From: Escherichia coli 042
GTDB taxonomy: Bacteria; Pseudomonadota; Gammaproteobacteria; Enterobacterales; Enterobacteriaceae
NCBI RefSeq assembly: GCF_000027125.1
Contig: NC_017626.1
DNA length: 64,000 nucleotides
Strand: one strand, 5' to 3'
Each line of letters opens with the position of its first letter. Position 1 is the stretch's first letter. Below, piece by piece: positions 1 through 64,000 of this stretch. The notes below the pieces were generated by a model that did not search any database, was not told where the DNA came from, and worked only from the letters and a program-made list of their open reading frames with translations. The position numbers and the translations under genes were made by a program.

Positions 1-875
1 TAGATTACCTGGCTGTCTCCTTCCCACGCTGCGGCGAAGATCTGAACTATGCCCGTCGGCTGGCACGCGATGCAGGATGTGATGCGAAAATTGTTGCCAA
101 GGTTGAACGTGCGGAAGCCGTTTGCAGCCAGGATGCAATGGATGACATCATCCTCGCCTCTGACGTGGTAATGGTTGCTCGCGGCGACCTCGGTGTGGAA
201 ATTGGCGATCCGGAACTGGTCGGCATTCAGAAAGCATTGATCCGTCGTGCGCGTCAGCTTAACCGCGCAGTAATCACGGCGACCCAGATGATGGAGTCAA
301 TGATTACTAACCCGATGCCGACGCGTGCAGAAGTCATGGACGTAGCAAACGCCGTTCTGGATGGTACTGACGCTGTGATGCTGTCCGCAGAAACTGCTGC
401 TGGTCAGTATCCTTCAGAAACTGTTGCAGCCATGGCGCGCGTTTGCCTGGGTGCGGAAAAAATCCCGAGCATCAACGTTTCTAAACACCGTCTGGACGTG
501 CAGTTCGACAATGTGGAAGAAGCTATTGCCATGTCAGCAATGTACGCGGCTAACCACCTGAAAGGCGTTACGGCGATCATCACCATGACCGAATCGGGTC
601 GTACCGCGCTGATGACCTCCCGTATCAGCTCCGGTCTGCCGATTTTCGCCATGTCACGTCATGAACGTACGCTGAACCTGACTGCTCTCTATCGCGGCGT
701 TACGCCGGTGCACTTCGATAGCGCTAATGACGGCGTAGCAGCTGCCAGCGAAGCGGTTAATCTGCTGCGCGATAAAGGTTACTTGATGTCTGGTGACCTG
801 GTGATTGTCACCCAGGGCGACGTGATGAGTACCGTGGGTTCTACTAATACCACGCGTATTTTAACGGTAGAGTAA
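1..875 (+). CDS. pykA: pyruvate kinase II, 3' portion (5' end lies outside the window)
   Basis: Open frame from the window edge (codon phase starts at nt 3) to stop at 875; translation matches the pyruvate kinase C-terminal domain; position upstream of lpxM as in K-12. Confidence 0.9.
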
Positions 876-882
876 GTACGTT

Positions 883-914
883 GCCGGATGCGGCGAAAAC
901 GCCCATCCGGCCTA
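883..914. repeat. REP (repetitive extragenic palindromic) element
   Basis: gccggatgcggcg...cgcccatccggccta, the typical REP imperfect palindrome in the pykA-lpxM intergenic region. Confidence 0.6.
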
Positions 915-980
915 CAGTTCAATTATAGTTCAACAGATTTCGAATCTTCTGAAGCAAACTTGAACTTATCACAAGGCGGA

Positions 981-1008
981 AGCCTCTCCTCGCGAGAGGC
1001 TTTTTTTA
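981..1008. terminator. rho-independent terminator (bidirectional hairpin, pykA / lpxM convergent pair)
   Basis: agcctctc-ctcgc-gagaggc stem-loop followed by a T7 run; A/T runs on both sides. Confidence 0.7.
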
Positions 1009-1977
1009 TTTGATGGGATAAAGATCTTTGCGCTTATACGGTTGGATTTCGCCCGGCTTGCGAGTTTTCAGCAATTTTAATATCCAGGTGTATTGTTCTG
1101 GTCGCGGACCAACAAAAATCTCGACTTCTTCATTCATCCGCCGCGCAATCGTATGATCATCCGCCTCTAACAGATCATCCATCGGTGGGCGCACCTGAAT
1201 CGTCAGGCGATGCGTCTTGCCATCATAAATCGGAAACAGCGGTACAACGCGCGCACGGCACACTTTCATCAAACGACCAATCGCGGGCAACGTCGCTTTA
1301 TAGGTGGCAAAGAAATCAACAAATTCGCTGTGCTCTGGGCCATGATCCTGATCGGGTAAATAATATCCCCAGTAGCCCTGACGTACCGACTGGATGAATG
1401 GTTTAATACCATCATTTCTCGCATGCAGACGACCGCCAAAGCGACGACGCACCGTGTTCCAGACATAATCAAAAACCGGGTTGCCCTGATTATGGAACAT
1501 CGCTGCCATTTTCTGCCCTTGCGAGGCCATCAGCATGGCAGGAATATCGACGGCCCAACCGTGCGGCACCAGAAAAATCACTTTCTCGTTATTACGCCGC
1601 ATCTCTTCGATGATCTCCAGCCCTTGCCAGTCAACGCGCGGCTGAATTTTCTCCGGCCCGCGTATTGCCAACTCAGCCATCATCGCCATCGCTTGCGGCG
1701 CAGTGGCAAACATCTCATCAACTATCGCTTCGCGTTCAGCTTCACTACGTTCTGGAAAGCAGAGCGACAGATTGATTAACGCACGACGGCGTGAGCTTTT
1801 TCCCAGGCGTCCGGCAAAACGTCCCAGCCGTGCCAGAATGGGGTCGCGAAACTTTGGCGGCGTTAAAGCAATACCCGCCATCGCTGCTACGCCCAGCCAT
1901 GCTCCCCAGTAGCGCGGGTGGCGAAAGGATTTATCAAACTCAGGAATGTATTCGCTATTATTTTTTTTCGTTTCCAT
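1006..1977 (-). CDS. lpxM: lipid A biosynthesis myristoyltransferase (LpxM/MsbB)
   Basis: 323-aa [17 protein letters not shown]... N-terminus; length and sequence fit LpxM. Confidence 0.95.
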
Positions 1978-2049
1978 GCTTTTCCAGTTTCGGATAAGGC
2001 AAAAATCAATCTGGTGATAGTGTAGCGGCGCAACTTGCCCCGCACCAAA

Positions 2050-2080
2050 TAAAAAAGCCGGTACTGACTGCGTACCGGCT
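2050..2080 (-). terminator. rho-independent terminator downstream of mepM
   Basis: gccggtac / gtaccggc stem with an A run on the plus strand (T run on minus) just 3' of the mepM stop. Confidence 0.65.
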
Positions 2081-2095
2081 GCGAATGGATGTTAA

Positions 2096-61958: not shown

Positions 61959-62043
61959 ATGATTATCCGTTTCTGCAGGGTTTTTAATCGGACGATTAGT
62001 GGGTGAAATGAGGGGTTATTTGGGGGTTACCAGTAAATTGCGG

Positions 62044-62070
62044 ACAGAAAAAACCCCGCCGGTGGCGGGG
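62044..62070 (-). terminator. rho-independent terminator downstream of fliC
   Basis: ccccgccggtggcgggg hairpin with an A run on the plus strand (T run on minus). Confidence 0.7.
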
Positions 62071-62101
62071 AAGTACGTTGCTGACAAATTACGCTTCATG
62101 T

Positions 62102-62200
62102 TGCCGGATGCGGCGTAAACGTCTTTTCCGGCCTACAAAAATTAGCAAATTCAATAAATTGTAATTCACCTTGTAGGCCTGATAAGCGCAGCGCATCAGG
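62102..62200. repeat. REP elements (BIME) in the fliC 3' flank
   Basis: tgccggatgcggcgtaaacg...ccggcctaca and tgtaggcctgataagcgcagcgcatcaggca. Confidence 0.6.
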
Positions 62201-62244
62201 CAATTTGGCGTTGCCGTCAGTCTCAGTTAATCAGGTTAGGACGA

Positions 62245-63909
62245 TTAACCCTGCAGCAGAGACAGAACCTGCTGCGGTACCTGGTTGGCTTTTGCCAGCA
62301 CGGAGTTACCGGCCTGCTGAATGATCTGCGCTTTCGACATGTTGGACACTTCGGTCGCATAGTCGGCGTCCTGAATACGGGACTGCGCTTCAGACAGGTT
62401 GGTAGTGGTGTTGTTCAGGTTGGTGACTGCGGAATCCAGACGGTTCTGGATAGCACCCAGGGAAGAACGGAATTTGTCGATAGACGCGATAGCGTCATCC
62501 AATGCTGCCAGCGGGTTGGTAGTAGCTTCAGATTCACTAGTTGTATTAGTCGTTAAGTTACCATTGGCACTTACATAGATAGCTTTACTGGTAGCCGCAT
62601 TTTCACCACTAGTAATAGTGCCATCAGCTTGAGCAAAATACTCGGCAGGAGTTTTGCTCACTTTTCCATCGACTAAATACGCTGATGCAGCAGTGCCATT
62701 ATTGACTGTATATGTCGCAGGTAAAGTTACACCAACAGTTGCAGTGTAAGTCTCATTTTTAACGGCGTTAGCAAACGTTGAAGCATCAACAGAAATATCT
62801 ACCCCATCAAACTTTGTCGTATTAGCAGTAAATGTACCTTTATCTGTTGTAATGACTGTTTTGGCATTAGCATTGTTTGCCATTAAGTCAGACAGTTTAG
62901 CTTGAGTATCAGTGCCTGCGTTAGTTTTACTTAAGTTACCAGTATCATCAAGATAGAGAGCGGCACCGTCATCAGCAGCAGTTAAAGAACCATCTTTAGC
63001 AATAATGACTTTTTGCTCTTGAGCTGTTGTACCGTTGCCAATACTTACTGTTGCAGCAGTGGTACCACCCGCTTCAGGATTCAGGAATGCCGCCAGTTGA
63101 GTCGCATCAACTGAAGCAGAAGCCGTATATGTGTTAGTATCTTTATGATAAGTATATTCCACTGGCGTACCAGGGGCAGCTGCACCAAAACCAACATCTG
63201 CCTCCGTGGAAACTTTACTGCCATCAACACCAGCTACCGCATTCAAAATATCCGTGCTACTTGCGACGGCTTTGTCAGCAATATATCTATTAACTCCAGC
63301 TGTAGTGACCCCCGTATTATCGAGTTTTAAACCAACCATATCTTTAAGTGTTGCAGCAGTATTGGCTGTTTCACCTTCGCCATTCACGTTAAAACCAGCC
63401 AGATTCAGCGTATCAGAGTCAATTTTCTTCAGATCAATCGTGATGGTTTCACCATCATTTGCGCCGACCTGAATTTTCATTGAACCATCTTTGGACAGCA
63501 CGTTCACGCCGTTGAACTGGGTCTGACCGGATACGCGGTCAATTTCGTCCAGACGAGATTTGATTTCGTCCTGGATGGAGTCCAGGTCAGAATCGGAGTT
63601 AGTCCCTGTAGTGGCCTGAACCGTCAGTTCACGAATACGCTGTAAGTTGTTGTTGATTTCGGACAGCGCGCCTTCAGTGGTCTGTGCAACAGAAATACCG
63701 TCATTGGCGTTACGTGCAGCCTGAGTCAGGCCTTTAATATTAGAAGTAAAACGGTTAGCAATCGCCTGACCTGCGGCGTCATCCTTCGCGCTGTTAATAC
63801 GCAAGCCAGAAGACAGACGCTCGATAGAACTCGACAGCGCAGACTGGTTCTTGTTGATATTATTTTGAGTGATCAGCGAGAGGCTGTTGGTATTAATGAC
63901 TTGTGCCAT
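62245..63909 (-). CDS. fliC: flagellin FliC (554 aa; non-K-12 H-antigen central domain)
   Basis: The conserved N-terminus ([54 protein letters not shown]) and C-terminus ([67 protein letters not shown]) flank a Thr/Ala/Asn-rich variable middle region. Confidence 0.95.
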
Positions 63910-63984
63910 GATTCGTTATCCTATATTGCAAGTCGTTGATTACGTATTGGGTTTCCACCCGTCGGCTCAATCGCCGTCAACCCT

Positions 63985-63993
63985 GTTATCGTC
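63985..63993 (-). promoter_or_regulatory. probable sigma-28 -10 element of the fliC promoter (the -35 would lie beyond the window edge)
   Basis: The minus strand reads GACGATAAC (near-consensus GCCGATAA) about 75 bp upstream of the fliC start. Confidence 0.5.
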
Positions 63994-64000
63994 TGTCGTA

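Follow-up and report, generated by a model that had tools for sequence, protein, structure and literature searches.

A 64,000-nucleotide window that is almost certainly an intact and unremarkable pykA-fliC segment of the Escherichia coli chromosome

The 64,000-nucleotide stretch of DNA analysed here (the window) is almost certainly an intact and unremarkable segment of the Escherichia coli chromosome, running from pykA to fliC and syntenic with strain K-12 MG1655. Everything found in it is already known, and it holds no mobile element and no validated defence system. The original prediction had stated that no novel system is evident in the window, and nothing new has been found there. The single gene that a formal defence scan would flag is yecA, which adjoins an empty prophage attachment site at the tRNA gene leuZ and is considered separately below.

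Collinearity with K-12 and presence across the species

The window begins in the 3' part of pykA and ends 91 bp upstream of fliC. A blastn comparison with the segment 1,937,000-2,006,000 of K-12 MG1655 gave four collinear blocks on the same strand with 97.4-98.0% identity, and the counterpart of the window in this genome (b1854-b1923, about 1.938-2.004 Mb) is found without rearrangement. Gene order and orientation are shared with the pykA-fliC interval of K-12 MG1655, and so are the tRNA operon and the annotated small RNAs (sRNAs) MicL, MotR, AsflhD, AzuCR, 3'ETS-leuZ, SdsN and FliX. GC skew is uniformly negative across the window, which we take to be the sign expected for the replichore that holds it.

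A megablast comparison with 5,426 complete RefSeq E. coli genomes, which is the comparison set used throughout, was carried out with the window divided into three query chunks. Each chunk was recovered as one aligned piece with 100% coverage, with best identities of 99.1% (1-25000), 98.7% (25001-50000) and 99.6% (50001-64000), the last value being reached with many strains, and matches to the chunks were present in 5425 of the 5426 genomes. A composite made from the three best genomes left 0 bases of the window unaligned, and the few indels with respect to these genomes are all located in spacers, with no junction artefacts. The alignment with K-12 and with the whole genome set left no segment above 200 bp without a match, and no strain-specific segment of that size was detected; the sole low-frequency stretch is the centre of fliC (218/5426 genomes). 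The description of the window as intact core chromosome from pykA to fliC, made from the sequence before these comparisons, thus stands as far as collinearity and species-wide presence are concerned, except for this allele-specific centre of fliC, which is not core.

The gene content agrees with the alignments. By tblastn, 65 of the 67 K-12 proteins of the interval were found in the window, none of them with internal stops and none with gaps outside fliC. All but one of these 65 proteins are covered from the first to the last residue, pykA being the exception, since the window starts at its residue 191, and 64 of them are 94.6-100% identical to their K-12 counterparts, with FliC as the outlier (55.7%). 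All genes have their start and stop codons, and annotated genes make up 89% of the window. Under the best matches RefSeq annotates, from left to right, pyk, lpxM, mepM, znuACB, ruvBA, yobI, yebB, ruvC, yebC, nudB and aspS; then yecD, yecE, yecN, cmoAB, torZY, cutC, yecM, argS, flhEAB, cheZYBR, tap, tar, cheWA and motBA; then flhCD, uspC, otsAB, araHGF, ftnB, yecJ, azuC, yecR, ftnA, yecH and tyrP; and finally yecA, the tRNA-Leu/Cys/Gly genes, pgsA, uvrCY, yecU, yecF, sdiA, tcyNL, dcyD, tcyJ, fliZA and a flagellin gene. The K-12 genes of the interval are therefore present and intact with the exception of yecV and yecT, which are absent from about 1/3 of the genomes.

Strain polymorphisms relative to K-12

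The breaks between the four K-12 blocks fall in the cmoB-torZ spacer, the argS-flhE spacer, the region upstream of flhD and the centre of fliC. In the blastn comparison with K-12, the cmoB-torZ spacer (16202..16235) retains a shared hairpin and lacks the repetitive extragenic palindromic (REP) cluster of about 130 bp that K-12 carries. The argS-flhE spacer (23452..23503) consists of 52 bp with a strong bidirectional terminator-like hairpin, where K-12 has instead 784 bp with yecV and yecT, and tblastn of the two K-12 proteins gave no match in the window. In the K-12 segment these genes are annotated by RefSeq as lysozyme inhibitor LprI family protein. Because the K-12 segment is present in only 3642/5426 genomes (67%), in some of which it is further split by IS1, the short form of the argS-flhE spacer is a common alternative in E. 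coli.

In the flhDC regulatory region (39121-39900) no insertion sequence (IS) element is present, and comparison with K-12 MG1655, which carries IS1H there, locates the empty IS1 target site at 39418..39426. IS insertions upstream of flhD raise motility in laboratory strains.

The flagellin gene fliC (62245..63909, minus strand) encodes a protein of 554 aa, in comparison with 498 aa for the K-12 MG1655 allele, and its 55.7% identity to K-12 FliC is obtained over an end-to-end alignment with 62 gap positions. The variable region at its centre (62515-63382) bears no relation to that of K-12, occurs in 4% of the genomes and is 100% identical to the one of strain NMBU_W05E18, typed by its authors as O86:H18, ST38, phylogroup D (PMC7311804); on the basis of this identity fliC is an H18-type allele. 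The lack of yecV and yecT, the absence of IS1H, one REP cluster fewer and the H18-type fliC are ordinary strain polymorphisms.

Empty prophage attachment sites

No integrase, transposase, phage or restriction-modification products appear in the RefSeq annotation under the near-identical genome matches, and neither IS elements nor prophages were found in the window. Matches to PHROGs correspond to host-type families (ABC transporters, DmsA-like reductases) and not to phage modules. A megablast search against 50,697 phage records returned host flanks included in prophage records, together with fragmentary unannotated records; the host flanks are those of yecE in phages encoding Shiga toxin (Stx) and in P-EibC, and those of yecA and leuZ in P2-like phages. 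No occupied attachment site was found at yecE, at leuZ or upstream of flhD, and no long flanking direct repeats were detected there.

The yecE gene is a documented integration site of Stx phages (PMC8112680). In records of Stx-converting phages 437 bp of yecE are present as an insertion duplication, and the unoccupied counterpart of the 21-bp Stx1/Stx2-phage attachment core lies inside yecE at 13260..13280, with 18/21 positions identical to the Stx1_14040 duplication. The second site is the 3' part of leuZ with its trailer (51883..52006), an unoccupied prophage attachment region into which P2-like phages integrate in other strains. The spacing between yecA and leuZ in the window is as in K-12, and a query from yecA to pgsA is contiguous in 3781/5425 genomes, as it is in the window. 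In the other 1644/5425 genomes (~30%) this query is broken at about window position 51883, immediately beyond the leuZ trailer. In FDAARGOS_1288 a P2-like prophage sits at this break point, and the sequence record of 520873, a P2-like phage, starts with yecA and the 3' part of leuZ up to window position 52006, followed directly by an integrase. Thus leuZ is a major prophage attachment site that is empty in the window, with the core gene yecA adjoining it.

Identity to individual strains and mosaicism

Three points weigh against an entirely ordinary segment. The best identities of the first 50 kb are only 98.7-99.1% among the complete genomes, and the exact source lineage is therefore absent from the collection; YecA aligns along its entire length with the candidate defence model PDC-S12, its residues 1-221 covering positions 1-218 of the 218-position profile (366 bits, E 1.7e-110); and short intergenic open reading frames (ORFs) and unannotated transcripts are still conceivable when the sequence alone is considered. 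An alternative reading can be attached to each of them.

The first point, together with an identity per kb that swings between 97.0 and 100% with respect to the best genomes (for instance 100% over 20001-25000 and 97.1% over 25001-26000), could speak for an artificial chimaera, or for DNA of Shigella or of a cryptic Escherichia clade. Such an origin is extremely improbable, since the identity to K-12 is within what the species shows, individual E. coli strains match many of the 1-kb tiles at 100%, the last 14 kb reach 99.6%, and no junction artefacts accompany indels that are confined to spacers. The flagellar genes of the window are all intact, and those of Shigella are typically decayed. The variation per kb indicates the mosaic typical of homologous recombination within the species, as expected for an ordinary E. 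coli segment.

Defence-model matches and the case of yecA

A PADLOC scan was carried out with all 66 window proteins. All matches but one were partial and correspond to widespread folds: the ABC ATPases ZnuC, AraG and TcyN matched the mad3, mad8, AriA, AbiLi, HEC, PtuA and LmuB models, RuvB matched IetA via its Walker motif, FliA matched MzaA via its sigma domains, NudB matched PDC-S07 via the Nudix fold and CheR matched mad2 as a methyltransferase. MotB matched ZorB models weakly and over part of their length (E 1e-8 to 5e-6). It shares the MotB/OmpA-like fold with ZorB of the Zorya system, whereas MotA had no PADLOC match and none to ZorA at E<=1e-5, the window has no ZorC/ZorD-type partners, and motA and motB sit in the motAB-cheAW flagellar operon with products 99-99.7% identical to K-12 MotA and MotB. 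None of the window proteins gave a full-length match to an experimentally supported PADLOC system with its partner genes.

The sole full-length PADLOC match in the window is that of YecA (51091..51756, minus strand; 221 aa, UPF0149 and SEC-C motif by Pfam, 99.5% identical to K-12) to PDC-S12, and a formal defence scan would flag the gene. This match, and the position of yecA at the border of a hot spot of integration with occupants, P2-like prophages among them, in ~30% of genomes, are the grounds on which yecA might be a genuine single-gene anti-phage or anti-integration system in the core chromosome, beside the leuZ site that these prophages use. Several observations make this very unlikely. 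PDC-S12 is a PADLOC candidate system that the papers examined mention only as scan output, and the literature searched provided no experimental defence phenotype for YecA or PDC-S12. The yecA-to-pgsA query matches 5425/5426 genomes and is not patchy as typical defence genes are, so that yecA in the window behaves as a conserved gene of the core with a fixed neighbourhood and not as an island gene; the 520873 record carries it as host flank. In preprints YecA is described as a SecA-like metal-binding-domain protein and Sec-pathway chaperone (10.1101/613315, 10.1101/2020.07.21.215244). Because yecA adjoins the leuZ attachment site, and this adjacency alone would yield an enrichment near defence islands, we infer that its PDC-S12 label is probably guilt by association. 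The statement that the window has no ORFs resembling mobility or defence genes accordingly keeps its force for integrase, transposase, phage and restriction-modification genes, and the candidate match of yecA qualifies it without overturning it.

The P2-like prophage found at leuZ in FDAARGOS_1288 encodes a 379-aa product annotated as YecA family protein (L009, 17045-18184, plus strand), flanked by ogr and the gene for late control D. This protein was considered as the basis of PDC-S12 and rejected, since it shares with YecA only a 20-aa N-terminal SEC-C motif and has neither a PDC-S12 match nor any PADLOC match beyond the motif. In P2-like phages the slot between late control D and ogr often carries anti-phage cargo, and the 379-aa protein may be an uncharacterised defence candidate.

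Open reading frames, antisense frames and spacers

The window has 302 ORFs of at least 50 aa and 143 of at least 80 aa. In a six-frame scan of the window no ORF of at least 80 aa lies mainly outside annotated genes, and those of this size other than the known genes overlap a known gene in another frame or on the other strand. The earlier statement that the ORFs map onto known genes in K-12 order is upheld in this respect; it needs the correction that yecV, yecT and IS1H, which belong to the K-12 complement, are absent.

An undescribed small protein or RNA could be sought in the AT-rich spacers flhD-uspC (780 bp), araF-ftnB (796 bp) or torY-cutC (385 bp), or an unrecognized gene on the antisense strand. 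Long stop-free antisense frames do exist, opposite argS (498 aa, 21889-23385, minus strand), aspS (392 aa, 10964-12142, plus strand) and yebC (239 aa, 9238-9957, plus strand, with the frame open across all of yebC). Each of them keeps the codon register of the sense strand, and a stop in that antisense frame needs a TTA, CTA or TCA codon in the sense strand. Their length follows from the near absence of these codons from argS, aspS and yebC (0-3 per gene), and the two other antisense frames of the same genes contain 8-30 stops. These ORFs were rejected as overlapping genes and are considered codon-usage shadows.

For fourteen ORFs of 50-72 aa, most of the length is intergenic. Between strains they show frame-breaking indels, mostly amino-acid (non-synonymous) changes or no variation, and hence no sign of purifying selection, with low power at 97-100% identity. 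A permissive Rfam search of the window revealed no new RNA family, its only additional matches being sub-threshold ones that are REP-like (naRNA4, 5973-6134) or ERIC-like (V_AS5, described below). Complete (100%) identity to K-12 in some stretches of spacer might favour a hidden element; the two largest spacers, flhD-uspC and araF-ftnB, have the same size in K-12 and are the regulatory regions of flhDC and araFGH. This conservation agrees with the earlier remark that the intergenic spacings are ordinary. On these grounds a hidden gene or RNA in the window is regarded as highly doubtful, and the window is read as a segment whose genes are those already annotated.

Complete identity to K-12 was observed upstream of aspS (12256-12474, 219 nt) and upstream of ftnB (46943-47104, 162 nt), in comparison with a window average of ~97.7%; to judge from the sequence, both stretches are probably constrained regulatory DNA.

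Flagellar and chemotaxis genes

All the members of the enterobacterial flagellar and chemotaxis cluster expected in this interval (flhBAE, tar-tap-cheRBYZ, motAB-cheAW, flhDC, fliAZ and fliC) are intact, and nothing functional differs from the known cluster; only the antigenic type of the flagellin varies by strain. The functions and regulation given here and below follow established knowledge, and synteny, gene intactness, RNA features and the absence of an insert were observed directly.

The genes of the cluster are all on the minus strand (identities to the K-12 proteins are given in brackets). The genes flhE (130 aa, 23504..23896, 94.6%), flhA (692 aa, 23896..25974, 99.7%) and flhB (382 aa, 25967..27115, 100%) are followed by cheZ (214 aa, 27317..27961, 100%), cheY (129 aa, 27972..28361, 99.2%), cheB (349 aa, 28376..29425, 99.1%) and cheR (286 aa, 29428..30288, 99.7%). 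Next to them lie tap (533 aa, 30307..31908, 98.3%) and its paralogue tar (553 aa, 31954..33615, 99.6%), which share the direct repeats D1 and D2. The adjacent genes are cheW (167 aa, 33760..34263, 100%), cheA (654 aa, 34284..36248, 99.7%), for which the K-12 annotation adds a short form from an internal start, motB for the flagellar stator (308 aa, 36253..37179, 99.0%) and motA (295 aa, 37176..38063, 99.7%). The regulatory genes flhC (192 aa, 38189..38767, 98.4%) and flhD (116 aa, 38770..39120, 100%) complete this part. At the other end of the window, fliZ (183 aa, 60609..61160, 97.8%) and fliA, encoding sigma-28 (239 aa, 61206..61925, 100%), precede fliC.

Within the three-tier flagellar cascade, the class 1 regulator FlhDC switches on operons of class 2, among them flhBAE and fliAZ, and the sigma-28 factor FliA drives the class 3 operons motAB-cheAW, tar-tap-cheRBYZ and fliC. 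Known sRNAs trim this cascade and neighbouring pathways. A regex scan, with a sigma-28 promoter consensus that we take from established knowledge, located a sigma-28-type match upstream of tar (TAAAGTTT-N11-GCCGATAA, 33647..33673, minus strand) and a sigma-28-like match within flhC, ahead of motA and MotR (38232-38258). No new mechanism is needed for the flagellar part of the window. The literature on poorly characterised genes, covering yecA, yebB, yecD, yecE, yecM, yecN, yecT, yecR, yecJ, yecH, yecF, yecU, yobI, flhE and ftnB as well as DUF72 and UPF0149, gave no newly described system at this locus; a paper on FlhE as a chaperone and work on YebC as a translation factor were found.

Remaining genes of the window

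The remaining genes belong to housekeeping operons. The 3' part of pykA (1..875, plus strand, residues 191-480 of pyruvate kinase 2 in the RefSeq annotation, 100% by tblastn) is followed on the minus strand by lpxM (323 aa, 1006..1977, 100%, full length), mepM (440 aa, 2096..3418, 100%) and znuA (310 aa, 3434..4366, 98.7%), and on the plus strand by znuC, an ABC ATPase with generic PADLOC matches to mad3 and AriA (251 aa, 4445..5200, 100%), and znuB (261 aa, 5197..5982, 99.2%). The ruvAB pair consists of ruvB (336 aa, 6134..7144, 99.7%) and ruvA (203 aa, 7153..7764, 100%), both on the minus strand. Two genes separate it from the ruvC-yebC-nudB group, namely yobI for a small protein (21 aa, 7903..7968, minus strand, 100%) and yebB (200 aa, 8039..8641, plus strand, 98.0%), whose product is assigned to the permuted papain-like amidase family (Pfam Peptidase_C92, E 1.6e-46).

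The group itself lies on the minus strand and is formed by ruvC (173 aa, 8643..9164, 100%), yebC (246 aa, 9199..9939, 99.6%) and nudB (150 aa, 9968..10420, 99.3%), with the match of NudB to PDC-S07 restricted to the Nudix domain. YebC-family proteins help the ribosome to translate proline-rich stretches and are translation factors (PMC12234827, PMC11990639), and in view of the YebC-family papers of 2024-2026 the label 'transcriptional regulator' given to yebC is an outdated annotation. The aspS gene (590 aa, 10538..12310, minus strand, 99.5%) comes next.

The operon yecD-yecE-yecN-cmoAB occupies the plus strand, with yecD of the isochorismatase family according to Pfam (188 aa, 12620..13186, 99.5%), an intact yecE with the Pfam domain DUF72 (272 aa, 13183..14001, 98.5%), yecN with the MAPEG domain by Pfam (131 aa, 14054..14449, 100%), cmoA (247 aa, 14490..15233, 99.6%) and cmoB (323 aa, 15230..16201, 99.4%). 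The minus strand then carries torZ (809 aa, 16236..18665, 99.1%) and torY (366 aa, 18690..19790, 98.6%), as well as cutC (248 aa, 20176..20922, 97.6%) and yecM (188 aa, 20936..21502, 97.9%), both recognized by the Pfam families of the same names. On the plus strand argS follows (577 aa, 21718..23451, 99.8%).

Beyond the flagellar regulators, uspC (142 aa, 39901..40329, plus strand, 97.9%) precedes two further minus-strand units of the housekeeping type, otsBA and araFGH, which comprise otsA (474 aa, 40336..41760, 100%) with otsB (266 aa, 41735..42535, 98.9%) and araH (328 aa, 42702..43688, 99.7%) with araG, an ABC ATPase that has generic PADLOC matches (504 aa, 43703..45217, 100%), and araF (329 aa, 45287..46276, 99.1%). 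The genes ftnB (167 aa, 47073..47576, 100%) and ftnA (165 aa, 48865..49362, 100%) and the gene tyrP (403 aa, 49830..51041, 99.0%), all on the plus strand, are also housekeeping genes. Among them are found yecJ with the Pfam domain DUF2766 (83 aa, 47656..47907, minus strand, 98.8%), yecR for a lipoprotein recognized by Pfam as YecR (107 aa, 48370..48693, plus strand, 97.2%) and yecH with the Pfam domain DUF2492 (79 aa, 49400..49639, minus strand, 97.5%).

To the same housekeeping set belong yecA, the leuZ-cysT-glyW tRNA genes and, on the minus strand, pgsA (182 aa, 52406..52954, 100%), the uvrYC pair with uvrC (610 aa, 53011..54843, 100%) and uvrY (218 aa, 54840..55496, 99.5%), and sdiA (240 aa, 56246..56968, 98.3%). 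It ends with the minus-strand genes tcyN for an ABC ATPase with generic PADLOC matches (250 aa, 57198..57950, 99.2%), tcyL (222 aa, 57947..58615, 100%), dcyD (328 aa, 58630..59616, 100%) and tcyJ (266 aa, 59721..60521, 100%). Two small plus-strand genes, yecU (58 aa, 55792..55968, 100%) and yecF (74 aa, 55955..56179, 100%), lie between uvrY and sdiA.

RNA genes and repeated elements

At gathering thresholds Rfam recovered MicL, C0465 and three tRNAs, and the ARAGORN tRNA calls agree with Rfam: leuZ, tRNA-Leu(UAA), at 51952..52038, cysT, tRNA-Cys(GCA), at 52051..52124 and glyW, tRNA-Gly(GCC), at 52179..52254, all on the minus strand. The MicL sRNA (20097..20404, minus strand, RF02654 with 368 bits, 99% identical to K-12 micL) overlaps the 3' end of cutC, and the candidate sRNA C0465 (RF00116, 100.3 bits) is on the plus strand at 33663..33740.

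The other RNAs annotated in K-12 were recovered by blastn with 94.6-100% identity. They are MotR (38132..38225, minus strand, 97.9% to motR), the antisense RNA AsflhD (39099..39319, plus strand, 94.6% to asflhD), the dual-function RNA AzuCR (47992..48150, minus strand, 98.1% to azuR), which contains azuC (48022-48108, 28 aa, 100%), the regulatory RNA 3'ETS-leuZ (51885..51951, minus strand, 100% to the K-12 feature), SdsN (57057..57193, plus strand, 96.4% to sdsN) and FliX, from the 3' untranslated region (UTR) of fliC (62048..62238, minus strand, 95.3% to fliX).

The direct repeats of the window are REP copies, those due to the paralogy of tar and tap, and short two-copy chance matches; no tandem repeats were detected in the window, and the repeat and tandem-repeat scans of the window revealed no CRISPR or regularly spaced repeat array. 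A REP element was identified by blastn similarity to K-12 REP sequences in the pykA-lpxM spacer (877..916). The znuB-ruvB spacer holds a REP cluster, or bacterial interspersed mosaic element (BIME), at 5973..6139, with copies of repeat family D3 at 5999-6037 and 6101-6139 and the sub-threshold Rfam naRNA4 match mentioned above. Further members of family D3 are the REP element of the flhB-cheZ spacer (27243..27281) and the one located inside FliX (62100-62202).

An imperfect palindrome resembling the enterobacterial repetitive intergenic consensus (ERIC), or intergenic repeat unit (IRU), occupies the aspS-nudB spacer (10406..10529, minus strand), which has the same length in K-12. Its fold is that of a long hairpin with imperfect pairing (-44.8 kcal/mol, z -4.9), and its core resembles the ERIC/IRU consensus. 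The Rfam match at this position is to V_AS5, a Vibrio RNA, and is below threshold (44.5 bits, with a gathering score of 96).

Implications

If yecA did act in defence, a chromosomal gene with a housekeeping appearance would double as immunity. In Enterobacterales, automated searches for defence systems will report the core gene yecA as PDC-S12, and this call is a probable guilt-by-association artefact. The long antisense ORFs opposite argS, aspS and yebC are likewise codon-usage shadows and not genes. The result is a clean negative: the window is fully explained as ordinary core chromosome of E. coli and can be put aside.

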